64,000 bases of DNA from OCS155 cluster bacterium AG-349-E07. GTDB taxonomy: Bacteria > Actinomycetota > Acidimicrobiia > Actinomarinales > Actinomarinaceae. Location: positions 27,493 to 91,492 of the forward strand of contig QCCZ01000001.1 of the NCBI GenBank assembly GCA_003281085.1, read 5' to 3'. Position 1 is the first letter of the stretch. Every line of letters begins with the position of its first letter. Shown piece after piece: positions 4,954-37,000 of this stretch. Position numbers and translations under genes: made by a program. The notes under the pieces are model-generated. The model searched no databases. It was not told where the DNA came from and saw only the letters and a program-made list of their open reading frames with translations.

Positions 4954-5088
4954 CTAATCACGTTTATCAACCCAAAGGGAGTCTTTTTCCATTGGAGCGC
5001 GTAATAATCCAATTACCAATAATGCAAAAGTGATTATTGGAAATAAAAGAATTAAGAACAAAGGGTACGATGTTATTGTTTCTATCAT
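4954..5088 (-). CDS. Candidate 44-aa small membrane protein downstream of pntB
   Basis: ATG at 5088 gives MIETITSYPLFLILLFPIITFALLVIGLLRAPMEKDSLWVDKRD, then TAG at 4956-4954. One TM helix. It is below the ORF-track size cut-off and could be chance in AT-rich DNA. Confidence 0.2.
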   Translation of the reverse strand: MIETITSYPLFLILLFPIITFALLVIGLLRAPMEKDSLWVDKRD

Positions 5089-5193
5089 ATTTTTATTTTA
5101 ATAAATTGAAATAAATCACGCTACACACGACTATTTTTGTCTCATCTGAGTCATATTGTTTGTTTTAATTTTTTTTAATTCAGAAAGAGATAT

Positions 5194-16636: not shown

Positions 16637-17241
16637 TGGTTTCAAACTCTGCAGTAATAGAGTTAATAATCCTTCAAATAAGTGTCGCTTTTAGCCCTGG
16701 TTTAATAATTGCTCTAATTGTTAATGAATCTGTACAAAAAAGTAGAAAAAATGGACTTCAAGTAGCAGGGGGTGCAGCAACAGGGGCAATTTTTATTACA
16801 ATCATTACGGGTGGAGTTGTCACATTCGTTTTTAATTTAATTCCTCAAATTTTAACCATTATTTATATCATTGGAATTATCTACATTTTATACAAAGGTA
16901 TCGATACTATTAGATCTGGAGTCGAGACCCAAAGTAAAGTTATTAGTAGTGGATCATTTAATGCAGGAATGAAACTAAACCTCATTAATCCAAAGATGTG
17001 GGTATTTTATCTTTCTGTATTACCTATTTTTGTTACAGAAAGTGGAAATGTATTTTTACAGTTAATTTACTTAGGGATTGTAACTATTTTTGTTAACCTC
17101 ATTGCAGATGTTAGCTATGCATTCATGAGTAGTTACTTTTTCCAATCTTCTTCAATTAAAATAAAGAAGCTAATAAATACAATTAGTGGTATTTGTTTGG
17201 TCTTAATTGGAATCTATCTATTTTTTAGTAGATTTCTTTGA
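16636..17241 (+). CDS. LysE/RhtB family amino-acid exporter
   Basis: 201 aa with about six TM helices and an N-terminal FSPGL motif. 1-nt overlap with the upstream stop. Confidence 0.75.
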   Translation: MVSNSAVIELIILQISVAFSPGLIIALIVNESVQKSRKNGLQVAGGAATGAIFITIITGGVVTFVFNLIPQILTIIYIIGIIYILYKGIDTIRSGVETQSKVISSGSFNAGMKLNLINPKMWVFYLSVLPIFVTESGNVFLQLIYLGIVTIFVNLIADVSYAFMSSYFFQSSSIKIKKLINTISGICLVLIGIYLFFSRFL

Positions 17242-18162
17242 ACCTTTAGCGTCATCATCCTTAAATAGTTCTGCTACTGCCCCGATGCTTCCAAGTGTTG
17301 CTGAAAGATCTGCAGGTAAGAATATCTTTGTTGCCTTACCGTTCGCAACTTTTTCTAAAGATTCAAGATACTTAATTGCAATCAAGTCATTTGTTGGATC
17401 ACCTTTATGAATTGCATCAAAAACTTTTTCAATTGCTTCTGCCTCACCCTCAGCGATGGCAATTTTTTCATACTTCTGTGCATCAGCAACTTGCTTCAAT
17501 GCTTCAGCTTCACCAGTTGCATCAAGAACTTGCGATTCTTTTCTACCTTCTGCTGTAAGAATAGCTGCTCTCTTTTCACCTTCAGCTTCTGTTACAACAG
17601 CTCTTCTGTCTCTCTCAGCTTTCATAACTTTGTTCATAGCATCTTGAACATCTTGAGGTGGATCGATTCTTTGAATTTCGACTCTTACAACTCTTGTTCC
17701 CCACTTATCAGTAGCTTCATCAAGAATTAATTTAAGAGAAGTATTAATTGTTTCCCTTGAAGTCAATGCAGCATCTAACTCAAGGTCACCAACAACATTT
17801 CTTAGGTTAGTTTGTGCTAATTTTGTAGCTGCAGTAATGAAGTCTCCTACGTTATAAACGAGTTTCTTAGGGTCAGTCGGTTCATAGTAAATAACAGCAT
17901 CAACTGTAATAGTTACATTGTCTTTAGTAATAACTTCTTGTGGAGGAACATCTATAACTTGTTCTCTCATATCAACGATAATAATTCTCTCAAGTCCAGG
18001 TATTACTATATTCAATCCTGAACTAGCCTCTCTGTTAAACTTACCTAATCTTTCAACTAAGCCGGTTTCAAAGGGTCTAATAATTCTGAAGATTCTAAAA
18101 AGTATTACCCCTAGGAATACAATTATTAAAATCCATCTAACTAATCCAAATATAAATTCCAT
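17218..18162 (-). CDS. SPFH/band-7 (stomatin-like) protein
   Basis: N-terminal TM helix, an SPFH core (VDMREQVIDVPPQEVITKDNV...) and an Ala/Glu-rich coiled-coil tail. Confidence 0.9.
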   Translation of the reverse strand: MEFIFGLVRWILIIVFLGVILFRIFRIIRPFETGLVERLGKFNREASSGLNIVIPGLERIIIVDMREQVIDVPPQEVITKDNVTITVDAVIYYEPTDPKKLVYNVGDFITAATKLAQTNLRNVVGDLELDAALTSRETINTSLKLILDEATDKWGTRVVRVEIQRIDPPQDVQDAMNKVMKAERDRRAVVTEAEGEKRAAILTAEGRKESQVLDATGEAEALKQVADAQKYEKIAIAEGEAEAIEKVFDAIHKGDPTNDLIAIKYLESLEKVANGKATKIFLPADLSATLGSIGAVAELFKDDDAKGSKKSTKK

Positions 18163-18171
18163 AATCTTATT

Positions 18172-18606
18172 TTACTCCTCGTTCGTTTGTACTTCTAATT
18201 TTGTACCATTGACATTTACTACTTTTACTTCAGTACCTGCTGGAATTCTCTTATCTAATGATACTACTTGCCAGTCATCACCATATACATGCTGAAGTGT
18301 TGGATCATATTTGTCTAATTCTTCAGTTGTCACAAAGGTTGTACCTATATATTTATTTACACCTTCAGAAAAGTTTTCTGATTCTTCTTTTTTTCCTCTT
18401 CTTGGACCAAATATTTTTACAGAAATATATACCCCGACAATACTGAATACGACAAATGTTCCAAGCTGAATATCCTGACTATCGGTAATAAGTGAGGCAA
18501 TACCTGCGGAAAACGCTCCAATTGCAAAGGGTAACATGAAAAAGGTTGTTACTAATAATTCGGCAAGTACTAAAACCGCAGCGGCAATGAACCAAATTTG
18601 TGTCAT
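18172..18606 (-). CDS. NfeD family membrane protein
   Basis: TM helices followed by a C-terminal OB-like segment (GTEVKVVNVNGTKLEV). Sits immediately upstream of the SPFH gene, the classic NfeD-stomatin pairing. Confidence 0.8.
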   Translation of the reverse strand: MTQIWFIAAAVLVLAELLVTTFFMLPFAIGAFSAGIASLITDSQDIQLGTFVVFSIVGVYISVKIFGPRRGKKEESENFSEGVNKYIGTTFVTTEELDKYDPTLQHVYGDDWQVVSLDKRIPAGTEVKVVNVNGTKLEVQTNEE

Positions 18607-18615
18607 ACTGACAAT

Positions 18616-18984
18616 CTAACTATCTTGATTGTCCATTTCAAGTTGTTCTTGTTCAAAACGATTTAATGCTAATAGAAACATTACAAACAATATTGAAGAT
18701 CCGATTAAAAAAGTTATAGGAAGAATTCTTATTTCAAATGCATTTAGTCCATCAATTGAAGCCGGTGCTGGACCTCTTGGTGCGTAAAGAATAAAAAATA
18801 TTGAGTTGATTACGCCCCAACCAAATATTGCTGCTCCAGTAATTAAAAAACCTAGTCTTTTTCCCAGGTTTGTGGCATTTAATAAAAATGTGGAACCAGC
18901 AAACACAATTAGAGAACCTATAAACATTATGATTCCTGTAACTAACAGGTTAGACGAGAGAAGAGATCTCATTATTTCACGCAT
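18616..18984 (-). CDS. Hypothetical four-TM membrane protein, last gene of the Rieske/cytochrome b operon
   Basis: 122 aa. The start overlaps the cytochrome c stop by 8 nt (ATGCGTGA), implying co-translation with the complex. Confidence 0.55.
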   Translation of the reverse strand: MREIMRSLLSSNLLVTGIIMFIGSLIVFAGSTFLLNATNLGKRLGFLITGAAIFGWGVINSIFFILYAPRGPAPASIDGLNAFEIRILPITFLIGSSILFVMFLLALNRFEQEQLEMDNQDS

Positions 18985-20401
18985 CAGGTTCCATTCCTCT
19001 CAAATAGTCAATAATTAATTCTATATCTGATTGAGGAAGAACAGCACCAAAACCTGGCATTTTTCCTCCTCCTACACCATTAACTCCGTATGCTTTTCCG
19101 TTTACAGAACCTTTGATAATGAAGTCAATAAAGTCTTCCCTTTGCTTAAACTGAATATTTACTCTTCCTGCTCTTAGCGCAGGTCCCAATCCACCTGAAG
19201 CAATCTCTTTTGTGTATGCTACACCAGCTGAATAACCAGCGGTGTGACATCTTGCACAGTATGCATTGAATAATCCAACTGCTCTTTTAGCCTTTTCGAC
19301 ATCACCTTCGAAAGTTGAGTCTGCAATTTCATCAAATGAAACTTCCCACAACTTCTCTTCAAGAGCTTTTTCTAAGAAAGCAAGACCAGTCTCTGCCTCA
19401 TTTAAAAACTTGTCATATCCCTCTGAAATTATTGTAATGTTGATAAGTTCTGATTCTAATTGTGATAAAAATCCATTTGCCACTGACTTATCTTTTCTTC
19501 CCGGAATAGACTCTTCATTATCTGGATCAAGATTCAATATTGACGTACCAAGTATTTCATTTACATTTGCACTATATGTTGATATATCTACTTCTACCGA
19601 GTCGCTTAGACCATCTTCGTCTGTATCTATCCCACCTTCTTTAGAGAGTAAAGCAGAAATATCTTCAACAGCTTTTTGTACAACTGGCAATTTTGTTGGA
19701 GAGTCTTTTACGCTTTGGATTAATTCTTTTTGTCTCGCAATTTCATTTTCTACAAGTAACTCAGAAGTTTCAAGACGTAATAATGAACTATTAATGTTTG
19801 CATCTATCGTCGCCAATTCTTCATTCTGTGGAATTTGGAAATGGTGCATATATTCAATTAAGTCATCTAACTGGCCGTCATTCATTGGTCCTCCGCCTTC
19901 AAGACCCCATGCGGGCATAGGTGAGTTGGCACGGCCATAAATTAACCAATATCTTACTTCATCATCATCGTATCTAAAAAATACATTATTTATTGCTGGT
20001 GCTTCCCAGGTAACGCTAATTCCACTTCTTTTTTCTACATAAGAAGCTGCGCCACCAGAACCATCTACACCATGACAGTTTCCACACCCAAACTCTTCAT
20101 AAAGGTGTTCTCCACGCTCAACAGAGACTTCATCAAATTCAACAACAAATTCTTGTTGTCTATTTTGTTCTCCTAAGTAATAAAGTGGAATCATTATTGT
20201 CAAAAGAGATGCAAGGAGAACAGCAACAGTTAGTGTTCTATCTAACGTTTTTGTTTCAAGTTCATCATCATTTCTATATTTTGATAAATTAGGGGCTATA
20301 TCTTTAGCTTTGCCAGAACCCCTGAAACCAGCTGAAACAAAAAATGCGAGGCCCCCAATGATACCTAGTGCAATTAATGTAATGAAAAGAGAACTAGACA
20401 A
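18977..20401 (-). CDS. Membrane-anchored diheme cytochrome c (QcrC-like) with a long inter-heme insertion
   Basis: Two CxxCH motifs (CGNCH near residue 106, CARCH near residue 382) and N-terminal TM helices. Residues about 190-365 form a helical, acidic insert containing DTDEDGLSD. Confidence 0.85.
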   Translation of the reverse strand: MSSSLFITLIALGIIGGLAFFVSAGFRGSGKAKDIAPNLSKYRNDDELETKTLDRTLTVAVLLASLLTIMIPLYYLGEQNRQQEFVVEFDEVSVERGEHLYEEFGCGNCHGVDGSGGAASYVEKRSGISVTWEAPAINNVFFRYDDDEVRYWLIYGRANSPMPAWGLEGGGPMNDGQLDDLIEYMHHFQIPQNEELATIDANINSSLLRLETSELLVENEIARQKELIQSVKDSPTKLPVVQKAVEDISALLSKEGGIDTDEDGLSDSVEVDISTYSANVNEILGTSILNLDPDNEESIPGRKDKSVANGFLSQLESELINITIISEGYDKFLNEAETGLAFLEKALEEKLWEVSFDEIADSTFEGDVEKAKRAVGLFNAYCARCHTAGYSAGVAYTKEIASGGLGPALRAGRVNIQFKQREDFIDFIIKGSVNGKAYGVNGVGGGKMPGFGAVLPQSDIELIIDYLRGMEPDA

Positions 20402-20404
20402 CTT

Positions 20405-21268
20405 TTATTCCTCCGTTGTTAATGCAATACAAGAAAGACCTTGTGGGTACTTGACTGACATCCCAGGTGCTCTTGGAGATTCAATTATAGTTCCAGTATC
20501 AATAATTAATCTTCCAGATACATTTGCTACGTTGAATCTATCTAAATTTCTTGGAGCTGGACCAGCAAAATATTCACCAACCATATTATATTTTGATCCA
20601 TGACAAGGACATTCAAATCCTTGAGATGAGTTACACCATGGAACTCTGCATCCGAGATGAACGCATCTTTGATAAACAGCCACTAATCCATCTGTAACAG
20701 TTGAACCTGAGGCAAACTGAGAATTAGCTGCTGCAGATTCACTAAGTGGAAGAATATATGCTCTAGCTGCAGGAATAAATGCAGGTATAACAGAACCATC
20801 TGCTTGAAATATTTGGTTTTTTATTTCTTCAATTGATCCAGCATCAATTTTGGAACCAAAACCACCTGAGACTTTTGGCCATATAAAACCTAGATAAGAG
20901 ATAAGTTGTATGCCTGCAAAAGCACCAAATGAAATTCTTAGAGCTTTAGTTAAAAACTGTCTTCGGTTTATACCTATTTCTTCTTCAGATAGCTCCTCAT
21001 ATATTTCTTTTTCTTCTAATTTAACAGTACCGTCAGATGGAACTTCTTGCTCTTGTTCTTCATCAATAATGGTTTCTGTCTCACCTTTTGGTAATTCTGG
21101 CTCGAGAAAATTTGTTGCTGATTTATCTTCTTTTAGTGCTTTCTTTTCAACGTTTTTTTTCCAATTGAGATTTTTAGGACCTCGTCCTGTGACAATCACT
21201 ACAATTCCAATAATTCCTAATAACCCAACTAAAGCAAACCCTGCAAACGATAACTCAACTAAGGTCAT
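20405..21268 (-). CDS. Rieske [2Fe-2S] subunit
   Basis: CVHLGC...CPCHGS Rieske boxes. An N-terminal TM helix and an acidic linker precede an internal Tat-like motif (NRRQFLTKAL). Confidence 0.9.
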   Translation of the reverse strand: MTLVELSFAGFALVGLLGIIGIVVIVTGRGPKNLNWKKNVEKKALKEDKSATNFLEPELPKGETETIIDEEQEQEVPSDGTVKLEEKEIYEELSEEEIGINRRQFLTKALRISFGAFAGIQLISYLGFIWPKVSGGFGSKIDAGSIEEIKNQIFQADGSVIPAFIPAARAYILPLSESAAANSQFASGSTVTDGLVAVYQRCVHLGCRVPWCNSSQGFECPCHGSKYNMVGEYFAGPAPRNLDRFNVANVSGRLIIDTGTIIESPRAPGMSVKYPQGLSCIALTTEE

Positions 21269-22044
21269 TCGAAGTGTATCCAGTCAAGCAAATCATCAAA
21301 CCATATTCCATCAATCCATGGATACGTCCAGTTCCATCCTGGTCCTCTGAAAAGCACACCAATAATGGTCAAAACTCCGGCACCCGCTAAGAAAAAGGTA
21401 TAAAACATAATTGCAAATTTTCTTTTAGAAGGATGAGTTTCTGGATTTCTATCAATATAAGGAAAGGCCATCCAAAGTACTACGCCTAAGACTAGTGGAA
21501 TCATAACACCTGCTATTTGTGGATCCCAATAAGATAATAATTCTTGCAATCCCAAAAAGTACCAAGGAGCTTTTGCTGGGTTAGGTGTAACGTTTGGGTT
21601 GGCTTCTTCAAGCAAAGGTGCTTGTAATATTGCTGATAATAATATTAAGAATGCTGTCATTGCCATAAGAGAAACAAACTCTGGAAGCATTAGGTGTGGC
21701 CAGGTATTTACTTTATCAACTGGTTCAGCTACTGGCTTCTGAATTGGTTTAGCTTTTACAACCGTAAGAAGTCGTTGGGTTACTTTTACCTCAGGCGCAA
21801 AATCTACTTCTTCGGGTGTGTCAGTCTTTGAGGCTGCAGGTGCAGGTGTTTCAGCAGCAGGTGCAGGTGTTTCAGCAGCAGGTGCAGGTGTTTCATCAAT
21901 AACTTTTACTTCTGGTTCTTTGGCAACAACTGTTGGCTCTGTTTCACCTTTCATTTCAGCTAACGCTTGCTCAACACTAATTCCTAGTGCTTTAGCTCTT
22001 GCTTCTGCGGATCTAATTAATAAATGTTCTGGGATATCTACCAT
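21265..22044 (-). CDS. Cytochrome b C-terminal part (subunit IV-like) with N-terminal module and Pro/Ala repeat linker
   Basis: Three TM helices and a Qo-site PEWY-equivalent (KAPWYFLGLQELL). About 100 extra N-terminal residues carry RSAEARAKALGISVE plus (ETPAPAA)x3. ATGA overlap with the Rieske gene. Confidence 0.8.
   Translation of the reverse strand: MVDIPEHLLIRSAEARAKALGISVEQALAEMKGETEPTVVAKEPEVKVIDETPAPAAETPAPAAETPAPAASKTDTPEEVDFAPEVKVTQRLLTVVKAKPIQKPVAEPVDKVNTWPHLMLPEFVSLMAMTAFLILLSAILQAPLLEEANPNVTPNPAKAPWYFLGLQELLSYWDPQIAGVMIPLVLGVVLWMAFPYIDRNPETHPSKRKFAIMFYTFFLAGAGVLTIIGVLFRGPGWNWTYPWIDGIWFDDLLDWIHFE
21836..21895. repeat. In-frame tandem repeat, 21-bp unit x about 2.9 (encodes ETPAPAA repeats on the minus strand)
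   Basis: GCAGGTGCAGGTGTTTCAGCA is repeated at 21836, 21857 and 21878 (the last copy is partial). Confidence 0.9.
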
Positions 22045-22053
22045 AATTGTTTC

Positions 22054-22827
22054 CTATAACGGTCCTGAGATTCCGCCATCTTTACGAACTCTCCAAAAAT
22101 GAACAGCCATAAAAATAACAATGATAAATGGTAAAAAGAGCACGTGTAGTACATAAAACCTTAATAATGTTGCAGTTGTAGCTTCAAGACCGGCGAAGAG
22201 ACCGAATTTAGCTTGCGCACCGATAACAGGCGTGTAGCCAGCCATATTACCTCCTACTGTCACAGCCCATATTGCTAATTGATCCCACGGTAATAGATAT
22301 CCTGTAAATGAAAGTAGTAAAGTTAGGAGCAAAAGAATAACTCCTATAACCCAGTTAAATTCTCTAGGTGCTTTATATGCGCCATGATAAAAAACTCGTG
22401 ACATGTGAAGAAAAACTACTAGAACCATCAAGTGTGCTCCCCAACGATGCATGTTCCTAACTAACGAACCAAATGCAATACTTGTTTGTAGGTTTTGTAT
22501 GTCTACATAAGCAAGTTCAGTTGGACGAAAATAAAACATCAACCAGATACCAGTAATAGTTAAAACAATAAATAAGAAGAAGCTCAATCCACCTAAGCAT
22601 AATGTGTAAGATAGGCGTACTCCGTGCCTCTTTACTTTTACAGGATGTAAGTGATACAAAACATTGTTCATAACAACATATGATCTATTTCTAGGACTAT
22701 CTACATACCCTTTTCTGAATGGTGAACCAGGACGGAAAATACTAGACATTAATTTTCCGCCTCTAAAGCTATCAGCAGCACTGATTCTTGCTTCTTTAAT
22801 CTTGTCTCTTAAAGATAATTTCTGCAT
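22054..22827 (-). CDS. Cytochrome b6-type subunit (four-helix N-terminal half of cytochrome b)
   Basis: His pairs have b6 spacing (HRWGAHLMVLVVFLH, HVLFLPFIIVIFMAVH). Also PREFNW, TGYLLPWDQ and a b6-like C-terminal end RKDGGISGPL. CLGG conserves the Cys that binds heme ci in b6f and Firmicute complexes. Confidence 0.9.
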   Translation of the reverse strand: MQKLSLRDKIKEARISAADSFRGGKLMSSIFRPGSPFRKGYVDSPRNRSYVVMNNVLYHLHPVKVKRHGVRLSYTLCLGGLSFFLFIVLTITGIWLMFYFRPTELAYVDIQNLQTSIAFGSLVRNMHRWGAHLMVLVVFLHMSRVFYHGAYKAPREFNWVIGVILLLLTLLLSFTGYLLPWDQLAIWAVTVGGNMAGYTPVIGAQAKFGLFAGLEATTATLLRFYVLHVLFLPFIIVIFMAVHFWRVRKDGGISGPL

Positions 22828-22836
22828 TATGTAATT

Positions 22837-23283
22837 TTAAAGCCTTCCATATATATATCCATGTCTGTCACTTCTTTGACCAGAATCTTCATCCCATGGA
22901 GCTTGGTAGATGCCATTTTCAACTGCTTGGTCTGCTAGAGATCCTGCAAACTTTCCAAGTGAAATAACTCCAGTAGGACACCTATCTACACAAAGTGCAC
23001 ATCTTGTACAAGCGTCCTCATCAACAACAAAAAAACCAGGTTCCTCTGAAGCATCAGGAGACTCTACATTTATTGAATCTTCAATAGCGTCTACAGACAA
23101 ATAATGAATACACTTCCATGGACAAATATCTACACATCCTTCACATAGAATGCACTCAGATTCATCTATATGTAAAAACTGTTTTGGTCTAACTCGGGAA
23201 GCCACTTTTTCTGCTTCAACCATTGCTAGATTGTATTTTTTTTCAAACTCTGGCATCTCTATAAGAACTTCTGATTTAGGCAT
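22837..23283 (-). CDS. 2x[4Fe-4S] ferredoxin-domain protein encoded inside the cytochrome b operon
   Basis: CILCEGCVDICP and CTRCALCVDRCP clusters. The ORF track extends to 23352, but the ATG at 23283 overlaps the upstream stop by 8 nt (ATGCCTAA) and is the more likely start. Confidence 0.8.
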   Translation of the reverse strand: MPKSEVLIEMPEFEKKYNLAMVEAEKVASRVRPKQFLHIDESECILCEGCVDICPWKCIHYLSVDAIEDSINVESPDASEEPGFFVVDEDACTRCALCVDRCPTGVISLGKFAGSLADQAVENGIYQAPWDEDSGQRSDRHGYIYGRL

Positions 23284-23869
23284 CTTGTTCCACCCTAACA
23301 ACCTCTTTTCCATAGTCGGAAATTCTAGATTTTGATTTTTCAACTTTATCATTTATATCTTGAATCAGATAAGCAACTACTAAGCCTGCTATTAAAAAGT
23401 TTGTAGAAATACCTAACTGAATTAAATCTTTAAGTGCAGCAAAACTTAACCCAATTTCATTGTTCAAGAATAATATTGGTGGGAATTGAATAAACTCTCT
23501 TTGACCAGTCCATTCAAGAGGACCCTGAGATAAGTTAAGCCATTCTGAAGGTACAATACCCAACAAAATAGACATTTCGATCCAAGTAAGGAAAGCAAAA
23601 TAAGTAGCTTTAGCCCAAGTTAATTCTTTGTCATTCCAGACAATCAAGACAAGACCCAGTAGTAAAAGCTGACTTGCACCAAAAGCAATTAGCTGACCTA
23701 TTGTTTGTGGTAACCAGCCTCTAGGAATCCAATTAAAATAATCAATAACTTCGCCTTTTGGAAATCCTGCAAAGTGTGCGATGATAACTCCAATTGTCAT
23801 CCCTCCTATACCAGAGACAATTGAAATTAAACCTATTCTGTATCTAAATTTATAAATTGTATAAATCAA
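23276..23869 (-). CDS. Hypothetical polytopic membrane protein, first gene of the Rieske/cytochrome b operon
   Basis: 197 aa with about five TM helices. Translationally coupled to the ferredoxin gene. No motif recognised. Confidence 0.55.
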   Translation of the reverse strand: MIYTIYKFRYRIGLISIVSGIGGMTIGVIIAHFAGFPKGEVIDYFNWIPRGWLPQTIGQLIAFGASQLLLLGLVLIVWNDKELTWAKATYFAFLTWIEMSILLGIVPSEWLNLSQGPLEWTGQREFIQFPPILFLNNEIGLSFAALKDLIQLGISTNFLIAGLVVAYLIQDINDKVEKSKSRISDYGKEVVRVEQDA

Positions 23870-24014
23870 ATTTCCTCAAACCTTACCTATATATTTTATC
23901 CTAAGATTGGAAAAAAATATAAATTGATTTCAATATCTTTTTCAAACATTTATCTTATAACGAGAAACATTTTTGAATATAATAGTAAAGTCAAAATGAA
24001 TAATAGCTAGGCTT

Positions 24015-25406
24015 ATGAAATTAAAATTGATTCCAAAAAACGAACAGGAGCTTTCAAAACTTTTTGTTCTAATTTTTCCATTAACCCTTTTGTTGTCATC
24101 ATCTACATCTTTTCTCAGAGATGCTTACTTTACATTTGCTAACTTAATCCCAAATAACAAAATTTTTAACTATGGATTTCTAGACACACTTTACAATCAA
24201 GCAACCTATGGCCTGCTTTTTGCTACATGCGTCTGCTTATCTTTCACTTATTTATTTTCAAAATCTCTTGGAAGAATTGCAGTACTTTTTCCGCTTTTGT
24301 TTCTGACATTATTAGGTCTTGTTGGTACAGAATTTTTAGACCTTCTTTTCAGCTTTTTTTATCAAGATAGAATTAATTTAACAGGAAATAGTTCGTTACT
24401 AATTATTCTAAAAATACTTGTTGGCTTTGGATTGTTTGGCCTAGCTTCATTAAATTTATTAGCTAAAAAAGAAAGTTCAATTTTTGCAAGTGCTCAGTTC
24501 ATATATGGTGCAATAGTTTTTTATTTTATTTCACTAATTGTATCTCGTTCAGAATTAGTTGTATTTACTGATTCTTTGATGATTGCTTCGCTCCATAATT
24601 CAACACATATATATGTGGGTGTATCATTTGTTTTTCTTGCTATTGTTCATTTTTTAATGACGAAACCTTTAGGGGCAACTCTTTTTAATAAAACGCTTAC
24701 AGCAATTACATTTTGGGGTTTCTTGTTTCTGCTTCCATGGACAAACTTTAAGTATTACTTTGGATCTATAATTCCCAATTGGCTTGAGAATGTATCTATC
24801 TATCTTTCACTAAGTTTATTAATTCCTCTTCTTGCATTTTCAGTAAATTATGTAAAAACAATACAGACAAAAGAAGATGAGGGTAATAAGTCATCTGGTT
24901 TAATGAGCTTTTCCGTTATTTTATTTTTAATTACTAATTTACTTCACATTATTTCTAGCTTTGAAAACATACTTCCATTAGTTGGACTGACTAATTTTCA
25001 ATATGTAATAAATCAGGGATATATTGGATCTTTAATTTTTGCTACAATTTCATTTGTCTATTATCTCATTCCCAAGCTTTTTGGAAGGTCAGTCAGATAT
25101 TCAAGACTTGAGGATTTAATCTTTTCCGGGTTTAAGTTTTTATATCCAGCTCTACTAATTAACAATTTTCTTATTGGAGTAAATTCTGGATATTCTTGGA
25201 ATGCTGGAGCAAATGCTGGAAGTCCCACAATCTACGGTGAAGGGTTCAGTATATTATGGAGTGTTGTAAGTATTAACTACTCTGCTAATACTTTTATTTC
25301 ACTTTTGCTAATGACGTTATCGTTTTTATTCTTTATTTCAGTCGTAAGATCAATTAGTTCTGGTGATGTAACAACAGTTGAAGAAATGGTTTTTAGCAGT
25401 GAGTGA
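24015..25406 (+). CDS. CcoN-like (C-family heme-copper oxidase subunit I-like) polytopic protein lacking most canonical metal-ligand histidines
   Basis: 463 aa with 12 or more TM helices. Segments align by eye to CcoN: LYNQATYGLLFA (cf. LHTNAVIFAF), LHNS (cf. GHNA), ITFWGF (cf. VHFWAL), WTNFKYY (cf. GPHHLHY), INQGY (cf. GHVHA), YYLIPKLFGR (cf. YHLVPKVFGR). The whole protein has only 4 His. Confidence 0.55.
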   Translation: MKLKLIPKNEQELSKLFVLIFPLTLLLSSSTSFLRDAYFTFANLIPNNKIFNYGFLDTLYNQATYGLLFATCVCLSFTYLFSKSLGRIAVLFPLLFLTLLGLVGTEFLDLLFSFFYQDRINLTGNSSLLIILKILVGFGLFGLASLNLLAKKESSIFASAQFIYGAIVFYFISLIVSRSELVVFTDSLMIASLHNSTHIYVGVSFVFLAIVHFLMTKPLGATLFNKTLTAITFWGFLFLLPWTNFKYYFGSIIPNWLENVSIYLSLSLLIPLLAFSVNYVKTIQTKEDEGNKSSGLMSFSVILFLITNLLHIISSFENILPLVGLTNFQYVINQGYIGSLIFATISFVYYLIPKLFGRSVRYSRLEDLIFSGFKFLYPALLINNFLIGVNSGYSWNAGANAGSPTIYGEGFSILWSVVSINYSANTFISLLLMTLSFLFFISVVRSISSGDVTTVEEMVFSSE

Positions 25407-26199
25407 TTTAGTAAATAAAGTAGCTGAATTATTAAACGCACCAGTTGACCTTGTGCAGAGATCAGCAGAGGCACGAGCACAGGCGTCTGGCGTCTCTGTT
25501 GACGATGTATTAAATTCATGGGCTGGTGGAGAGAGTGTTGCTGCAAGTTCAGCACCTGCACCGAAAGAAGAAGCCCCTGTTGAAGAAGTAAAAGAGGAAG
25601 CTCCTGTTGAAGAACTTGAGGATAATGTAGAGGAAACAACTGAAGTAGAAGTTGTCGAAGAAAAAGAAGCTCAAGACGTTATTGAGGAAGTTGTTGAGGA
25701 AGTTGTTGAGTTAAAAAATGAGAGTTCATTGGCGTTTATCAGTGGCGTCTTGTTAATTGGAATATTTACTTTTATCTTTGCCTTTGTAATTCCAAAGAAT
25801 CAATCAATAAGCGCAGTTGAAAGCTCTCTAAACAATTCAGTAAGTATAACTAGTGAAGTATTGAGAGGGGCAGAGATATATGGTGAACTAAATTGTCAAT
25901 CGTGTCACACTCAAAACGTAAGAACTTTAATTCCTGATACTCAAAATGGTAAAGTTCTCAAAAACAAATACGCAAATGCAGCACTTATTAAAAATGTAGG
26001 TACTATTCGCTTGGGACCCGATCTCTCAACAAATGGTACAAGAGAACCAACTAATAATTCCCAATGGCTAAAAAGATATCTAACTGACTCCTCTTCTGTA
26101 AATAGGGATATTCCACACCCAAACTATGGATTTCTAGACGACAATGATTTGGAGTACCTCGTAACCTATTTACTATCATTAGGAGAAGTAAATGAGTGA
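25399..26199 (+). CDS. CcoO-like membrane-anchored monoheme cytochrome c with N-terminal repeat module
   Basis: Likely GTG start at 25399 (GTGAGTGA overlap with the upstream stop; the ORF track starts at TTG 25378). GAEIYGELNCQSCHTQNVR, RLGPDLS, WLKRYL and LVTYLLSL follow the FixO/CcoO pattern. One TM helix. Confidence 0.7.
   Translation: MSDLVNKVAELLNAPVDLVQRSAEARAQASGVSVDDVLNSWAGGESVAASSAPAPKEEAPVEEVKEEAPVEELEDNVEETTEVEVVEEKEAQDVIEEVVEEVVELKNESSLAFISGVLLIGIFTFIFAFVIPKNQSISAVESSLNNSVSITSEVLRGAEIYGELNCQSCHTQNVRTLIPDTQNGKVLKNKYANAALIKNVGTIRLGPDLSTNGTREPTNNSQWLKRYLTDSSSVNRDIPHPNYGFLDDNDLEYLVTYLLSLGEVNE
25400..25614 (+). repeat. Direct repeat copy 1 (215 bp, identical to 26193..26407)
   Basis: Base-by-base comparison of the two stretches shows no mismatch. 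Offset is 793 bp. It covers the upstream stop, the start codon and the first 70 or so codons. Confidence 0.95.
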
Positions 26200-27133
26200 T
26201 TTAGTAAATAAAGTAGCTGAATTATTAAACGCACCAGTTGACCTTGTGCAGAGATCAGCAGAGGCACGAGCACAGGCGTCTGGCGTCTCTGTTGACGATG
26301 TATTAAATTCATGGGCTGGTGGAGAGAGTGTTGCTGCAAGTTCAGCACCTGCACCGAAAGAAGAAGCCCCTGTTGAAGAAGTAAAAGAGGAAGCTCCTGT
26401 TGAAGAAGTAAAAGAGGAAGCTCCTGTTGAAGAAGTAAAAGAAGAAGCCCCTGTTGCAGCTTCTGTATCAACTAAACAAGTTAAAAAATCTGTTTCATTT
26501 ATTAATGAGACTATGTCTATCAAAACAAACTCAGATACGATTTTGCCTAAGTGGCTAAACTTTAGTTTTGTAATTATTCCATTATTTATACTTATTGGTC
26601 TTATTAGTTCCTCAAATACACAAGAGTGTGGCGAAAGAGGAATGCTAGACGTAGATAGAAAATCCCAACAGGCTGTTAATTGTGATGGATCACCTTACGA
26701 AGGAAGGGGCGTTGCTGCTACAAATACAATCAATTACATAGCAGTAGGTCAAGAAGTTTATGCAGGAGCAGGTGCTTGTGCTGGCTGTCATGGTGGAGGT
26801 GGAGGTGGAGGTGTTGGACCTGCATTTACCGGCGGTGCTTTATATACAACATTCCCAACATGCGCTGATCATGCAAAGTGGATACAACTAGGTTCTGCAG
26901 GATGGCAGGCTGAGGTTGGTCCTACATACGGAGCTGAAAATACTGTCTCGATTGGTGGTATGCCTGGTTTTCAAGGAAAACTCACTGAAGATGAAATTTA
27001 CGCAGTTGTAGTATTCGAGAGAGTTGTTTTTGGTGGTGGAGATACCGAAGAAGTGTTAATAGATTGTGGATTGCTAGAGACTGAAGAAGAGGAAGAAGAA
27101 GTAACTACAGAGGCAGTTAGTACTTCTCCTTAA
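26192..27133 (+). CDS. Membrane-anchored monoheme class I cytochrome c with N-terminal repeat module and acidic tail
   Basis: CAGCH heme motif followed by a Gly run. GGMPGF supplies a candidate Met ligand. One TM helix and a C-terminal ETEEEEEEV tail. ATGAGTGA overlap with the upstream stop. Confidence 0.8.
   Translation: MSDLVNKVAELLNAPVDLVQRSAEARAQASGVSVDDVLNSWAGGESVAASSAPAPKEEAPVEEVKEEAPVEEVKEEAPVEEVKEEAPVAASVSTKQVKKSVSFINETMSIKTNSDTILPKWLNFSFVIIPLFILIGLISSSNTQECGERGMLDVDRKSQQAVNCDGSPYEGRGVAATNTINYIAVGQEVYAGAGACAGCHGGGGGGGVGPAFTGGALYTTFPTCADHAKWIQLGSAGWQAEVGPTYGAENTVSIGGMPGFQGKLTEDEIYAVVVFERVVFGGGDTEEVLIDCGLLETEEEEEEVTTEAVSTSP
26193..26407 (+). repeat. Direct repeat copy 2 (215 bp, identical to 25400..25614)
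   Basis: See copy 1. Identity ends where copy 2 continues with additional 27-bp units. Confidence 0.95.
26363..26455 (+). repeat. In-frame tandem repeat, 27-bp unit x about 3.4 (EAPVEEVKE)
   Basis: Units start at 26363, 26390 and 26417, with a partial unit at 26444. Copy 1 of the module (25570-25614) has only about 1.7 units. Confidence 0.9.
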
Positions 27134-27568
27134 ATGAAAAAGTTTTCCATTTTTGATAAAAAGTCCTTACTTTATATTTTTGCTTTTTTCGATGGTCTTT
27201 CTGTAGCTGCTGGAGCCCTATTTGGTTTCTTTTTTCCAAAATTACTATCTGATGTTTTTGGAGCAAATTTTCAAACTAATGACTTGATCTGGTTTAAATT
27301 TGTACTTCTTCCTGGAATTGCAATAAATGTCCTATATATGTACTTTGCTATAACAAAAAGTAGAACCTTAATTCTTTTATCAAATATATTAAGGACATTA
27401 ACAACTGTGGGTTTCTTTTTGATGTGGGGAGAGGCGGTAGTACTGAGATCTTTGCTTAACCTTATGATTATTCATCATATCGTTGCAATATCATTAACAT
27501 TTTTTTTATATTTTAGAAAAGTAGATAACAAGAATATAGATATTTCAACTGAAAGAAAAGATCTTTAA
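27134..27568 (+). CDS. Hypothetical four-TM membrane protein, last gene of the CcoN-like operon
   Basis: The ATG immediately follows the cytochrome c stop (TAAATG). 144 aa, hydrophobic. Confidence 0.5.
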   Translation: MKKFSIFDKKSLLYIFAFFDGLSVAAGALFGFFFPKLLSDVFGANFQTNDLIWFKFVLLPGIAINVLYMYFAITKSRTLILLSNILRTLTTVGFFLMWGEAVVLRSLLNLMIIHHIVAISLTFFLYFRKVDNKNIDISTERKDL

Positions 27569-34007: not shown

Positions 34008-37000
34008 GTGGCACAGAAATCAGGGCTAAAAGTTACAAGGAAATATACAACACCGGGTAATCCCTATAACAACATCGAATGGGAAAAGCGTAGTTCAAAA
34101 ATAACCAACCCCGATGGTTCAGTTGTTTTTGAAATGAATGACGTAGAGATTCCTTCAACATGGTCTCAGGTAGCAACAGACATTATGGTTTCAAAATATT
34201 TCAGAAAAGCAGGAGTGCCTCAAACTGATGCTGATGGAAATGTACTAAAAGATGAAAATGGAAACGTAGTCCTCGGACCTGAAACCTCATCAAGACAAGT
34301 TTTTGACAGACTGGCCGAAACATGGAGACACTGGGGTGAAAAAACAGGCTACTTTGCCACAAAAGCAGATGCTCAATCCTTTGAAGATGAACTCAAGTAC
34401 ATGCTTGCGACACAAATGGCTGCGCCAAATAGTCCCCAATGGTTCAATACAGGACTTAACTTCAAATATGATCTTACAGGTCCAGCCCAAGGATTTTGGT
34501 ATGTAGATCCAAAAACAGGTAAGTTAACTCCTGGTGAAGATTCTTATTCAAGACCTCAACCACATGCTTGTTTCATACAGTCTATAGATGATGATCTTGT
34601 CAATGAAGGTGGCATCATGGACCTATGGGTAAAAGAAGCAAGACTTTTTAAATTTGGTTCTGGAACTGGTACTAACTTTTCTAATTTAAGAGGTGAGGGA
34701 GAAAAATTATCAGGTGGAGGTGTTTCATCTGGTGTAATGTCCTTCTTGAAAATTGGTGACAGAGCAGCTGGTGCTATCAAATCAGGTGGTACTACAAGAA
34801 GAGCTGCAAAGATGGTCATCTTAGATTTAGACCATCCTGACATTGAAGACTTTATTGAGTGGAAGGCTATTGAAGAAGATAAAGCTCGTGCTCTAATTGC
34901 TGCTGGGTATCCTGCAGATTTCAATGGAGAAGCTTATGCGACAGTATCAGGACAAAATTCAAACAACTCTGTACGTGTTCCATCAGATTTTGTTAAAGCA
35001 GTTGAAGAAGATGGAGACTGGGATTTAATTGCAAGAACTGATGGATCAGTTTTTAGAACTGTCAAAGCAAGAGATCTTTGGAATAAGATTGCAGACGCAG
35101 CCTGGAAGTGTGCCGATCCTGGGGTTCAATATGACACCACAATAAATGAATGGCATACATCACCTGAAGGTGGAAAAATTAGAGCATCAAATCCTTGTTC
35201 TGAATACTTATTCTTAGACAACACTGCTTGTAATCTTGCAAGTCTCAACCTTGTTAAGTTTTATGATGATGAGACACAAGTGTTTGATATTGATTCATAT
35301 AAACATGCACTCAGAATCTGGACTATTGTTCTTGAAATATCTGTCGAAATGGCCCAATTCCCATCAAAGGAGATTGCTCAAGGATCATACGACTACAGAA
35401 CACTTGGTTTAGGGTATGCAAACTTAGGCTCATTGCTTATGAGAAAAGGTATTGCATACGACTCTGATTTAGGAAGAGCAATAGCTGGTGCATTAACAGC
35501 GATGTTAACTGGTGAGGCTTACAAAGCATCTGCAGAAATGGCAGGAATTGTTGGTCCATTTCCAAAATATAAAGAAAACTCTACAAACATGCTTCGTGTA
35601 ATGAACAATCATAGAAAAGCAGCATATGATTCAAATGATTACGAAGGGTTAAGCCACGACTTGATTGCTATCAACCAAGAACTTTGTCCTGAAGACTTAT
35701 TGAAAGCAGCTCAACTTTCCTGGGATGAAGCTGTAGAGCTTGGTACAAAGAATGGTTATAGAAATGCCCAAGCAACAGTATTAGCTCCTACTGGAACTAT
35801 TGGCCTTTTGATGGACTGTGATACAACTGGCGTAGAACCAGACTTTGCACTAATGAAATTCAAAAAACTTGCTGGTGGTGGCTATATGAAGATTGCAAAC
35901 CAATCAATTGGGCCAGCACTCCAAGCTCTAGGATATGAAGAAAATCAAGTACAAGAAATTATTCAATATGTTATTGGATCAATGTCACTTGAAAATTCAC
36001 CTTACATTAATAAGAGATCATTAATGGAGAAAGGTCTTGGTGAAGAGGATATCGTAAAAATTGAAGGAGCTCTTCCTGGAGCTTTCGAAATCCAACATGC
36101 TTTTAATGTTTTTGTTTTAGGCGAAGAGACATTAAAAGGTCTTGGTATAGACGAAGAAGAATATACTTCTTTTGACTTTAATTTGCTTGAGAGGCTTGGT
36201 TTCTCAAGAAATGAAATAGCTCAAGCCAATCTTGAAATCTGTGGAACACAAAAAATAGAAGGTGCACCATATTTGAAAGATGAACATTTAGATGTTTTTG
36301 ATTGCGCCAACAAGTGTGGAAAAGATGGCAAAAGATTTATTCATTACATGGGTCATGTAAGGATGATGGCTGCTGCACAACCATTTATATCTGGCGCTAT
36401 CTCTAAAACAGTGAACATGCCTAATGAAGCAACTGTACAAGACATTGAGGACTGTTACTTTGAATCAGCAAAGATTGGTGTTAAGGCAATTGCAATTTAT
36501 AGAGATGGTTCTAAAGCATCTCAGCCACTATCCGCATCTTCTGATGAAGGAGACTCAGACGAGAGCGATCAAGAAGTTAACAAGATTCTTGAAGAAGAAG
36601 CAATGTTAATTCAAGGAAATTTTGCCCCAGGAACAAGTCCAACAAAAGCATATTCTGGTGTAAATAGACCAAGATTCTTACTTCCTGAGAGAAGAAAAGG
36701 ATGGACTCAAGAAGCTAGAGTTGCAGGGCATAAAGTCTACTTAAGGACTGGAGAATACCCTGATGGAACATTGGGTGAAGTATTTATTGATATTGCGAAA
36801 GAAGGAGCAACACTGAAAGGAGTTTTGGGTTGTTTTGCCATAGCTGTATCTAAGGGTCTTCAGTACGGAGTGCCCCTTGAAGAGTTTGTAGATACATTTA
36901 CATTCCAAACTTTTGAACCAAGAGGAATGGTTGAAGGACACGAGAACATTAAAATGAGTAATTCAATCATTGATTATGTTTTTAGAGCCCTTGGACTTGA

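Follow-up and report, generated by a model that had tools for sequence, protein, structure and literature searches.

The b6c-type reductases of Firmicutes and heliobacteria (QcrABC, PetCBDA) are menaquinol-oxidising Gram-positive enzymes that carry the haem-ci cysteine, and we know of none with a ferredoxin or with the membrane subunits A and G described below. In b6f, haem cn has been proposed to take up electrons from ferredoxin; in anammox Rieske/cytochrome b complexes an FeS subunit has been modelled as a wire from haem bN/cN to the cytoplasm; and cytochrome b of Dibrova subfamily G co-occurs with FeS oxidoreductases. The split cytochrome b of Ilumatobacter (Acidimicrobidae) was placed in the APWY or the PEWY-cyt c clade, the alternative not being specified (Kao & Hunte 2014); the APWY clade probably overlaps subfamily G.

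The cluster described here is, on balance, likely to encode a seven-subunit Rieske/b6-type menaquinol:cytochrome c oxidoreductase of the APWY branch, with an n-side FeS port to haem bn/cn. No searchable paper or solved structure was found that describes the seven-gene arrangement, or the ferredoxin, A or G of this complex, in line with the initial supposition that the architecture had not already been characterised; a b6f-like core with its own ferredoxin and two membrane proteins of unknown family would constitute an uncharacterised version of complex III, whose ferredoxin may be an extra cytoplasmic-side electron port.

The gene cluster and its conservation in Acidimicrobiia

The window, the whole 64,000-nucleotide stretch that was analysed, derives from Candidatus Actinomarina (Acidimicrobiia), a very abundant marine actinobacterium, and its ORF list and gene calls place seven translationally coupled genes on the minus strand at 18616-23869, in the order A-Fd-b6-SUIV-Rieske-dihaem c-G. 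All seven open reading frames of the initial annotation, which had described them as tightly coupled, are present at their coordinates, with junctions from A to G of -8, +9, +9, -4, +3 and -8 nt, the first of which bears out the 8-nt overlap by which the ferredoxin gene was said to be coupled. Pfam and NCBIfam matches within the cluster comprise two Fer4 domains, Cytochrome_B, Cytochrom_B_C, Rieske and two cytochrome c domains. Within the AT-rich divergent intergenic region (23870..24014; 145 nt), the minus-strand operon has its best sigma-70-like match at 23945-23916 (a consensus match only). Tight coupling in Actinomarina runs on past G, across 9-nt gaps, into genes for NfeD (18172-18606, minus strand) and a Band7/SPFH protein (17218-18162, minus strand), which together span 17218..18606; adjacent in Actinomarina only, these are probably not core parts of the cluster. 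Four marine metatranscriptome runs contain contigs that cover the cluster and span each gene junction, demonstrating its transcription in situ.

Among 80 genomes seeded with the ferredoxin, gene order is identical in every sufficiently long locus, and is therefore conserved far beyond chance, with the cluster always paired divergently with a ccoNOP-like set; two divergent high-GC contigs, whose ferredoxin clusters are labelled Actinomycetota, have the same order. In metagenome loci seeded with b6 (GC 47-72%), b6 is immediately preceded by the ferredoxin gene in 61 of the 63 with enough upstream DNA, two loci (L158 and L164) having no ferredoxin gene at this position. Acidimicrobiia as a class encode this Rieske/b6-type cluster, which is best read as a complex-III-type enzyme typical of the class. 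The cofactor sites are complete and their residues conserved (four His for the b haems, CxGG and APWY in the cytochrome b pair, both Rieske boxes, two CxxCH and the eight Cys of the Fe-S clusters), and the ferredoxin, with a median identity of 63.3%, is the second most conserved subunit (Rieske 47%, cytochrome c 41%, G 58.4%). The synteny survey thus speaks against the possibility, raised initially, that the ferredoxin would prove poorly conserved or absent at orthologous loci; because it is conserved class-wide, its presence in the operon is not incidental.

The cytochrome b core and its probable electron acceptors

Subunit C (22054..22827, minus strand; 257 residues; Cytochrome_B match) is a cytochrome b6-type protein whose alignment with cyanobacterial b6 (1vf5_A, E 2.5e-44) covers its full length and takes in both CLGG and the ISGPL of its C-terminus RKDGGISGPL, which upholds the proposed b6-type split with the haem-ci cysteine. 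Of 70 b6 orthologues, at least 90% keep the four haem His and CLGG, and the CLGG cysteine is the putative site of covalent haem-cn (haem-ci) attachment. A conserved, basic N-terminal extension of ~50 residues (net charge +7), kept in L158 and L164, is covered neither by the ExtP model nor by the alignments with cyanobacterial b6. Subunit D (21265..22044, minus strand; PF00032, Cytochrom_B_C), the subunit IV (SUIV) of the cluster, contains APWY as its Qo motif, along with three TM segments, and KAPWYFLGLQELL is conserved in it; module alignment distinguishes an 'RSAEARA' module at its N-terminus and a repeat linker rich in Pro, Ala and Glu. Assignment of the b6/subunit IV pair to b6f, actinobacterial QcrCAB or ExtP was rejected, the pair falling under the thresholds for all three (NCBIfam scores of b6: ExtP, the best match, 289.3 bits with a cut-off of 290; b6, 200.5 with 325; QcrB_actin, 110.9 with 500); the pair fits the uncharacterised 'APWY clade'.

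The Rieske [2Fe-2S] protein (subunit E; 20405..21268, minus strand; Rieske domain match) has its internal twin-arginine motif (RRQFL) behind an N-terminal TM segment, and its cluster boxes are CVHLGC and CPCHGSKY. Subunit F (18977..20401, minus strand; two cytochrome c domains) is a dihaem cytochrome c with two N-terminal TM segments and haem motifs CGNCH and CARCH, its haem domains separated by a long insert. The actinobacterial look initially ascribed to both proteins is weak (QcrA, 28.6 bits against a cut-off of 275; QcrC, 23.2 against 200), the Rieske protein scoring better with b6f PetC models (64 bits, under cut-off). Judging from the conserved motifs, quinol would be oxidised at a Qp site of b6, subunit IV (APWY) and Rieske, with one electron passing via Rieske to the membrane-anchored dihaem cytochrome c, and from there to further membrane cytochromes c or an oxidase, and the second crossing the membrane from haem bp through bn to haem cn, covalently bound at the CLGG cysteine.

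The divergent neighbour X (24015..25406, plus strand) is a CcoN-like (cbb3 subunit I) protein of the 12-TM type, matching PDB CcoN over its full length (profile E 4.8e-64), in which none of the six His that canonically bind haem b, haem b3 and CuB is present; no conserved His column was found in 60 X orthologues, some of which have one His in the entire protein. It is followed by Y (25399..26199, plus strand), a CcoO/FixO-like monohaem cytochrome c (CQSCH; domain matches) with one TM segment, and Z (26192..27133, plus strand), a membrane-anchored monohaem cytochrome c (CAGCH; domain match and TM prediction); the cytoplasmic N-terminal RSAEARA module is common to Y, Z and subunit IV, with a linker also in Y. 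A partner composed of a cofactor-less CcoN and two cytochromes c, not a functional oxidase, would suit a reading in which the complex mainly works backwards or belongs to a different pathway, as suggested for APWY-clade enzymes, and is not the main quinol:cytochrome c reductase, electrons running from periplasmic or membrane cytochromes c to the quinone pool or the FeS subunit, driven by membrane potential, as would the view that APWY is characteristic of reverse-direction complexes, none of them characterised (Kao & Hunte). Such a role is nevertheless very improbable, given that the cluster is kept universally in Acidimicrobiia, including the streamlined aerobic heterotroph Actinomarina, that genome surveys report it as the complex III of Acidimicrobiia beside cytochrome c oxidase, that surface-ocean metatranscriptomes contain its transcripts, and that no periplasmic substrate dehydrogenase was found linked to it.

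The ferredoxin, subunits A and G, and a possible third electron port

Subunit B (Fd; 22837..23283, minus strand; Fer4 x2) is a 2x[4Fe-4S] ferredoxin-like protein that is soluble and strongly acidic (net charge -14) and in which no TM segment was found; orthologue alignment and gene calls support the 148-residue form beginning MPKSEV. Both CxxCxxCxxxCP motifs are invariant in the orthologue alignment, and conservation reaches into the N- and C-terminal extensions that flank the ferredoxin core. Identification as NuoI was rejected (44.7 bits, NCBIfam cut-off 113). Since the whole family collapses to one 50%-identity representative, Fd forms a dedicated orthologous group and is not a generic ferredoxin; across all loci examined, it is present solely in this gene context.

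These features weigh upon whether Fd is a subunit or instead a co-transcribed soluble ferredoxin or transient biogenesis factor (for example, in haem cn or Rieske cluster insertion), with A and G as assembly factors or peripheral small subunits. The latter interpretation agrees, on the structural side, with the pLDDT of 33 of the Fd AF2 model, and with the two lineages that have no ferredoxin gene at the locus; moreover, as we know of no haem cn attachment machinery outside cyanobacteria and plastids, dedicated factors are to be expected somewhere. It is improbable, however, in that Fd conservation exceeds that of the catalytic Rieske protein and cytochrome c, whereas the conservation of an assembly factor usually falls short of that of its clients, and the conserved extensions, the fixed and translationally coupled place between A and b6, and the single tight orthologous group found solely in this context likewise argue for a subunit.

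Subunits A (23276..23869, minus strand; 197 residues) and G (18616..18984, minus strand; 122 residues), assigned from their ORFs and always the first and last genes of the cluster, have no Pfam or NCBIfam match and no PDB sequence relative, and a Foldseek search returned no fold relative of A (best E 0.81), in agreement with their original description as two membrane proteins of unknown family. Their supposed five and four TM segments did not hold, the AF2 model of A (pLDDT 77.6) having four long helices and a beta-hairpin, and G three hydrophobic segments. A has 1181 relatives, each named one among 120 listed being a 'hypothetical protein', and carries an invariant His32 and the motifs PRGW, MTWARA, VPSEWLNLxQ and SPYGRP; the motifs of G are TNLGKRL and YAPRGPxP..GLNAFEIRI.

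As a subunit, Fd would be made in stoichiometric coupling with b6 and dock on the cytoplasmic (n) face, probably at the basic b6 extension together with A and G, its two clusters forming a short wire that links haem cn/bn to the cytoplasm, the third electron port of the complex. A low-potential port on this side is plausible, in keeping with the conservation and charge data, although docking on the extension is weakened by L158 and L164, which keep the extension without Fd, unless their gene lies elsewhere. The likeliest direction, put forward tentatively, is entry, with low-potential cytoplasmic electrons passing through the FeS wire to haem cn and menaquinone at Qn, which would make the complex a built-in ferredoxin:quinone reductase. 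Reduced ferredoxin from 2-oxoacid:ferredoxin oxidoreductases is a possible source; it counts against the model that no partner enzyme for Fd (FNR, KOR) is encoded within the cluster. In the sister order UBA5794, 2-oxoglutarate:ferredoxin oxidoreductase replaces 2-oxoglutarate dehydrogenase, and reduced ferredoxin must therefore be re-oxidised aerobically, which counts for entry.

Exit by bifurcation is rather unlikely: here Fd would accept the low-potential branch, a menaquinol electron moving uphill through bp/bn/cn to [4Fe-4S] and a cytoplasmic acceptor while the second runs downhill to cytochrome c and O2, as likewise proposed for NAD(P)-reducing anammox Rieske/cytochrome b complexes. Ser and Tyr in the Rieske CPCHGSxY box raise the cluster potential, and the box occurs here within a lineage reported to make menaquinone, a pairing that, for anammox, has been taken as an argument for a haem bP of very low potential. 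The near-threshold ExtP score of b6, the n-side FeS/NAD(P) modules of subfamily-G and anammox complexes, and the view that APWY complexes are a system distinct from PEWY/PDWY enzymes (Kao & Hunte) point the same way. The cluster, however, has neither a flavin or NAD(P) domain nor an acceptor enzyme, its ferredoxin comprising only 148 residues; exit would, by our estimate, be about isoenergetic before membrane potential is counted; the host, an aerobic heterotroph that encodes PntAB in this window, can obtain reductant by other routes; and the Qn site retains all its elements (CxGG, bn ligands), needlessly so were FeS the way out.

Comparison with known complexes

The best family and PDB matches of Fd, NuoI/NdhI of complex I and PsaC/PscB of type-I reaction centres, are likewise small 2x[4Fe-4S] proteins with two CxxCxxCxxxCP motifs and terminal extensions, and in all these systems they are the permanently bound n-side electron wire of a membrane complex; Fd differs in scoring well under the family cut-offs, in its context and in its unique N- and C-terminal extensions. 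The neighbouring set resembles cbb3 oxidase CcoNOP in having a full-length CcoN homologue and, behind it in N-O-P order, genes for a FixO/CcoO-like protein and a cytochrome c, but X has lost the six His ligands class-wide and Y and Z have the N-terminal module.

With QcrCAB of the same phylum (Mycobacterium, Corynebacterium), the cluster has in common a dihaem cytochrome c anchored in the membrane and a Rieske protein whose Tat motif is preceded by extra N-terminal TM helix(es), and the linked oxidase-like module suggests a comparable supercomplex; QcrB, in contrast, is unsplit and without the haem-ci cysteine, gene order differs, the three actinobacterial NCBIfam models score far under cut-off and PDB QcrB matches of b6 reach only about E-22. 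Firmicute and heliobacterial complexes are alike as non-photosynthetic or anoxygenic b6-type enzymes with a c-type cytochrome (dihaem in heliobacteria), but their operons have Rieske ahead of b6, the Qo motif is PDWY or PEWY and Bacillus has a fusion of subunit IV and cytochrome c.

Among solved complexes, b6f of cyanobacteria and chloroplasts (PetB/PetD/PetC/PetA) is nearest to the b6 subunit, with the same split point (…ISGPL), four His ligands, CLGG haem-cn cysteine and three-helix subunit IV, and with PetC boxes that we take to resemble CVHLGC…CPCHGSKY. Here, however, a dihaem class-I cytochrome c replaces cytochrome f, APWY replaces PEWY, the b6 model score is under cut-off, the basic b6 extension and subunits A, Fd and G are present, and gene order is b6-SUIV-Rieske-c. 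The APWY clade, which includes Geobacter ExtOPQ (Kao & Hunte 2014), matches in Qo motif, split cytochrome b and CxGG; its typical haem motif is WCMGG, here LCLGG, and Geobacter ExtP has no N-terminal extension, its cluster encoding multihaem cytochromes and no ferredoxin.

The closest precedent is the FeS/NAD(P) modules of anammox Rieske/cytochrome b complexes R/b-2 and R/b-3 (Kuste4569-4574, Kustd1480-1485), which likewise combine a split b6-type cytochrome and haem cN with an in-cluster cytoplasmic FeS subunit. Theirs, large and GltD-like, is an NAD(P) oxidoreductase that contains FAD and about four FeS clusters and is accompanied on the p-side by multihaem or HAO-like proteins, whereas the acidimicrobial cluster pairs a 148-residue two-cluster protein with a plain dihaem cytochrome c, in an aerobic host, and adds A and G.

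Organisation and transcription of the seven-gene cluster

Seven minus-strand ORFs (18616-23869; ORFs of at least 60 aa considered) encode, in this order, membrane subunit A (23276-23869, 197 aa), a ferredoxin (Fd; 22837-23283, 148 aa), cytochrome b6 (22054-22827, 257 aa), subunit IV (SUIV; 21265-22044, 259 aa), a Rieske protein (20405-21268, 287 aa), a dihaem cytochrome c (18977-20401, 474 aa) and membrane subunit G (18616-18984, 122 aa), in a region of 35-38% GC within a window of low GC content (∼26-39%). Recomputed ORFs and A-to-G junctions (-8, +9, +9, -4, +3 and -8 nt) agree with the seven coupled genes and 8-nt A/Fd overlap of the initial annotation, and with intergenic gaps of ≤9 nt there is no space inside the operon for the small subunits PetG, PetL, PetM and PetN. 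The longest Fd ORF begins at 23352; 21 orthologues and public gene calls begin at the MPKSEV-equivalent methionine. An AT-rich spacer of 145 nt separates A from a divergent plus-strand gene set, X, Y and Z, and its best minus-strand sigma-70-like match (23945-23916) is a match to consensus only. Downstream, genes for NfeD and a Band7/SPFH (stomatin-like) protein (17218-18606, minus strand) come after G at 9-nt spacing and appear to be co-transcribed, an adjacency seen in Actinomarina loci only. Elsewhere in the window (1528-7818 and 34008-37325) lie the glyoxylate-shunt genes for isocitrate lyase and malate synthase, together with genes for PntB, a PNT/alanine-dehydrogenase-family (PntA-like) protein, a class II (B12) ribonucleotide reductase and glycerate kinase.

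In four independent marine metatranscriptomes, contigs span 18.4-23.8 kb and cross every junction of the cluster: NfeD/G/dihaem c (18454-19298, run X1 record 1), dihaem c/Rieske (20363-20615, run X7 record 29), Rieske/SUIV (20535-21336, run X1 record 4), SUIV/b6 (21891-22132, run X1 record 5), b6/Fd (22657-23196, run X1 record 6) and Fd/A (23228-23626, run X4 record 23). These contigs, which are unstranded and may include DNA carry-over, agree with co-transcription of the cluster in situ.

Pfam and NCBIfam models assign two Fer4, Cytochrome_B, Cytochrom_B_C, Rieske and two cytochrome c domains, with no assignment for A or G. Cytochrome b is divided between two ORFs (PF00033 and PF00032), one for b6, with four helices, and one for subunit IV, with three. 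The b6 protein aligns end to end with cyanobacterial/chloroplast b6 (PDB: 1vf5_A; E 2.5e-44), the alignment covering CLGG and stopping at ISGPL, so that the split point at the C-terminus (…RKDGGISGPL) is canonical; H126, H140, H227, H242, C77-L-G-G and the C-terminus are ≥90% conserved in 70 orthologues, bearing out the earlier description of a b6-type split with the haem ci cysteine, and C77 is the predicted site of haem cn (ci). SUIV has KAPWYFLGLQELL, giving a Qo motif of APWY, not PEWY, within a conserved KAPWYF. An N-terminal extension of b6, absent in ExtP-type and cyanobacterial b6, has a net charge of +7 (range +6 to +10). The SUIV linker (21833-21898) contains a 21-nt tandem repeat coding for three copies of PAPAAET, and in Actinomarina single-cell genomes with identical b6 the SUIV protein is anywhere between 252 and 323 aa long, marking the linker as a length-polymorphic, low-complexity spacer.

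The Rieske protein carries the boxes CVHLGC and CPCHGSKY, and its N-terminal transmembrane (TM) helix precedes an internal twin-arginine motif, RRQFL. The gene downstream of it encodes a dihaem class-I cytochrome c (PF13442, PF00034; CGNCH and CARCH), not cytochrome f, with two N-terminal hydrophobic segments; the long insert separating its haem domains contains a conserved DTDEDGLSD (19580-19630, residues ∼257-274) that resembles the bacterial thrombospondin type-3 calcium-binding repeat, with a match under the Pfam threshold (E 0.0026). Neither A nor G gave a credible match when its profile was compared with the PDB and Pfam. A usable AlphaFold2 model of A (pLDDT 77.6) has four long helices and a β-hairpin, with no fold relative in a Foldseek search of the PDB (best E 0.81), and G has three hydrophobic segments, replacing the five and four membrane spans first ascribed to A and G.

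Conservation of the ferredoxin and its locus

Fd contains two CxxCxxCxxxCP motifs whose cysteines (C44/47/50/54 and C92/95/98/102) do not vary among 21 sequences, no detected TM segment, N- and C-terminal extensions outside the ferredoxin core that are invariant in the orthologue alignment, and a net charge of -14 (range -16 to -11). In the PDB it is closest to polyferredoxins, NuoI/NdhI and PscB, none of the solved structures there contains it, and source databases name it variously NuoI, PreA, formate hydrogenlyase subunit 6 or plain ferredoxin. A profile search of 1.84 billion representatives resolved the family into approximately one 50%-identity cluster and a few shorter relatives of 120-139 aa; an AlphaFold2 model built from the 21-sequence alignment was rejected (pLDDT 33).

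Marine single-cell assemblies carry the exact b6 protein in an identical neighbourhood, and it is indexed in 2471 blocks of the public collection. A genome scan seeded with Fd recovered at least 599 species genomes with a relative; the closest among the matches listed are titled Candidatus Actinomarina or OCS155, and the other loci of the best 80 bear mostly Acidimicrobiia or Acidimicrobiaceae titles, with ∼20 under other or broader bin labels. Among these best 80, every sufficiently long locus has A-Fd-b6-SUIV-Rieske-c-G in the same order and on the same strand, and the X-Y-Z set lies upstream and divergent in every sufficiently long Fd-seeded locus. Median identities to the window proteins in non-Actinomarina loci are 77.8% for b6, 63.3% for Fd, 60.3% for SUIV, 58.4% for G, 47.2% for the Rieske protein, 41.3% for cytochrome c, 38.7% for Z, 38.3% for A, 31.0% for Y and 24.0% for X, making Fd the second most constrained component.

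Because this survey was seeded with Fd, it was repeated on metagenome contigs with b6 as the seed, yielding 63 loci (GC 47-72%) in which the contig extends 520 nt or more upstream of b6. Fd lies ≤200 nt upstream of b6 in 59 of these and at slightly wider spacing in two more, and a ferredoxin that proved poorly conserved or absent at orthologous loci, which would have spoken against the initial annotation, is clearly not what is found (63.3% median identity; present in 61/63 b6-seeded loci). Two GC-rich loci (L087 and L088, 67-68%) carry shorter Fd relatives, from protein clusters named ‘Actinomycetota bacterium’, in the order small membrane protein, Fd, b6 (CLGG), SUIV (APWY), Rieske, dihaem c and membrane protein, adjoining cytochrome c maturation genes.

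Fd is co-inherited and translationally coupled with the subunits of the complex, and apparently co-transcribed with them. Its conservation above that of the catalytic Rieske protein and cytochrome c, its invariant terminal extensions, its single tight orthologous group, which every locus examined places in this context and no other, and a charge of -14 facing the +7 extension of b6 together lead us to infer that Fd is a stoichiometric subunit on the n-side. Less probably, Fd would be a soluble ferredoxin or a biogenesis factor, a reading to which the two remaining b6-seeded loci lend weight: the Fd gene is missing before b6 in L158 and L164, yet the N-terminal extension of b6 (SIFRPGS…) is kept. 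At both (L158:1263-2542 and L164:1816-3510), a gene for an A-like membrane protein adjoins b6, with no Fd gene between.

The divergent CcoN-like gene set

The plus-strand genes X (24015-25406), Y (25399-26199) and Z (26192-27133) encode, respectively, a protein with full-length homology to the cbb3 oxidase subunit CcoN, a CcoO/FixO-like monohaem cytochrome c and a membrane-anchored cytochrome c, in the gene order N-O-P, and X is always divergent from the b6 cluster. The X profile matches CcoN of solved structures (PDB: 9g6b_A, E 4.8e-64; 3mk7_A, E 3.7e-61) over a 12-helix core, with non-histidine residues at all six positions of the haem b, haem b3 and CuB ligands; no conserved histidine column was found among 60 orthologues, whose whole proteins contain one to seven histidines and no HH pair. 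X is a catalytic-subunit homologue without metal ligands, having lost all six histidines across Acidimicrobiia. The COX1-like gene of L087 is likewise histidine-poor. Annotation pipelines would match X to the oxidase (CcoN, COX1) family, and inferences of microaerobic respiration drawn from such a match would be wrong, given the missing metal ligands. X and Y are apparently fused into one ORF in six loci from several Acidimicrobiia lineages (L057, L068, L071, L072, L082 and L085), and an ORF following Z (27134-27568), conserved in close Actinomarina relatives only, was left out of the system. Essentially no contigs of the four metatranscriptomes that cover the b6 cluster map to 24140-25210 within X, a gap that could reflect low expression or strain divergence past the 90% likeness filter; as X is the fastest-evolving gene, the filter may account for its near-zero coverage.

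A module of ∼30 residues, PExL(V/L)xRSAEARAxAxGxxVEEVL, forms the cytoplasmic N-terminus of SUIV (21943-22044), Y (25399-25530) and Z (26192-26323), with a Pro/Ala/Glu-rich linker and then a TM helix after each copy. It is conserved class-wide, occurs three times in the whole window and has no model in Pfam; a profile search returned only fragments of ≤77 aa and did not reveal other carrier families. In Y and Z, the DNA encoding module and linker is 100% identical over 215 nt (25400-25614 and 26193-26407), a direct repeat that suggests gene conversion between the two genes and contains 27-nt tandem repeats of the EEAPVEEVK type. The fixed divergent pairing and the module common to SUIV, Y and Z suggest that the b6 complex and X-Y-Z may work together, possibly in a supercomplex en route to a real oxidase.

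Proposed electron transfer and relation to known complexes

The residues expected of a Q-cycle-type enzyme (haems bp, bn and cn, the Rieske cluster and two c haems) are all conserved, and the two Fd clusters would link the cytoplasm to haem cn/bn, as the clusters of NuoI, PsaC and PscB do in their own complexes. For the direction of electron flow, entry is tentatively favoured: reduced ferredoxin would pass electrons through the FeS clusters and haem cn to menaquinone at Qn. The full Qn machinery is kept, no flavin or NAD(P) acceptor is encoded, and the sister order UBA5794 runs an aerobic TCA cycle on 2-oxoglutarate:ferredoxin oxidoreductase. The main rival is exit by bifurcation, with electrons leaving the complex via the FeS subunit, which would accord with kinship to anammox and APWY enzymes and with a Rieske protein bearing a Ser/Tyr box in a menaquinone lineage; if true, it would provide a second, simpler and aerobic case of bifurcation driven by quinol, as proposed for anammox bacteria. 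The initial annotation had taken the ferredoxin as a hint of an additional low-potential entry or exit on the cytoplasmic side, near haem bn/ci, a role that it may have; the descriptive core of the annotation holds, with details such as TM counts corrected.

Joining entry or exit to the divergent gene set, a supercomplex of a haem-cn b6 complex with a hard-wired two-cluster ferredoxin and a cofactor-less CcoN with two cytochromes c, tied together by the shared ∼30-residue module, is proposed tentatively, as an arrangement that may well prove not to exist. If true, it would represent a natural ferredoxin:quinone reductase, or a quinol-driven ferredoxin-reducing bifurcase, so far undescribed in the respiration of Acidimicrobiia. 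The role of haem cn and the direct exchange of electrons between b6 complexes and ferredoxin (the ‘FQR’ route of cyclic electron flow) is a long-standing question. A ferredoxin seemingly fixed to a b6-type complex would make it directly testable, in a lineage that is not photosynthetic and could in principle be cultured. Complex III of the whole class Acidimicrobiia appears to be encoded by this cluster. The class is abundant in oceans, lakes, soils and sponges, and its members include an actinobacterium that ranks among the most abundant in the surface ocean. Dibrova et al. recall a proposal that haem cn accepts electrons from ferredoxin, and genome surveys annotate the cytochrome b of Acidimicrobiia as ‘menaquinol-cytochrome c reductase’.

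The cluster resembles b6f complexes in the position of the split, the four-helix b6 and three-helix SUIV, the four haem histidines and the CxGG cysteine, but differs in its APWY motif, its dihaem c in place of cytochrome f, and scores below cut-off for b6 (PRK03735, 200.5 bits vs 325) and PetC (best Rieske matches, 64.4 vs 154 and 62.5 vs 250). The dihaem cytochrome, with its two cytochrome c domains, is shared with actinobacterial QcrCAB, whereas the b subunit is split, the order is b6-SUIV-Rieske-c as opposed to an unsplit b in qcrC-qcrA-qcrB, and all scores fall below cut-off (QcrB_actin 110.9 vs 500; QcrA_actin 28.6 vs 275; QcrC_actin 23.2 vs 200). The ‘actinobacterial look’ first attributed to the Rieske protein and cytochrome c therefore goes no further than a dihaem cytochrome and an additional TM helix preceding the Tat motif. 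As initially noted, the order b6-SUIV-Rieske-c of the surveyed loci also departs from petCA/petBD and qcrABC, as well as petCBDA, these orders being as known from the literature. With NuoI and bound ferredoxins, Fd shares the two CxxCxxCxxxCP motifs; its identity as NuoI of complex I was rejected on a score below cut-off (TIGR01971, 44.7 bits vs 113) and a different genomic context.

SUIV carries the Qo motif that defines the ‘APWY clade’ of Kao & Hunte, with cytochromes b in Deltaproteobacteria, Chloroflexi, Nitrospirales, Planctomycetes and some Firmicutes and Actinobacteria, of which no enzyme had been characterised and which was considered a separate system, possibly working in reverse (PMC4122944). 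As a score-based proxy for placement in this clade, b6 matches the Geobacter ExtP model best among NCBIfam families (289.3 bits; cut-off 290), followed by cytochrome b6 and, much lower, actinobacterial QcrB; the ExtQ model gives 57.2 bits against 150. The Geobacter Ext system, suspected from this near-threshold score, was rejected: it combines the Rieske protein ExtO, cytochrome b ExtP and membrane protein ExtQ with multihaem cytochromes and has no ferredoxin (PMC5877670), and no multihaem (ExtM/N/S-type) or porin (ExtI-type) genes were found in the cluster or its neighbourhood. A cluster-encoded FeS subunit, here between A and b6, is shared with the anammox Rieske/cytochrome b complexes, in which AlphaFold3 models bring the FeS chain of a GltD-like NAD(P) oxidoreductase to haem bN/cN (PMC12954380); Fd differs in its 148 aa with Fer4 domains only and no FAD/NAD(P) domain, and the p-side partner is a dihaem c.

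The architecture was not described in the PDB or in the open-access literature searched for Acidimicrobiia or Actinomarina with Rieske, b6, ferredoxin or cbb3. Already known, from phylogeny, is the split APWY- or PEWY-type cytochrome b of one Acidimicrobiia species: the split cytochromes b of Ilumatobacter (Acidimicrobidae) and Rubrobacteridae were placed in either the APWY or the PEWY-cytochrome c clade (PMC4122944). The cluster thus probably belongs to a broad known kind, the APWY-type b6 complexes, some with n-side FeS modules, and is distinguished by its minimal and distinct ferredoxin, by subunits A and G without sequence relatives (A also without a fold relative), and by its gene order.
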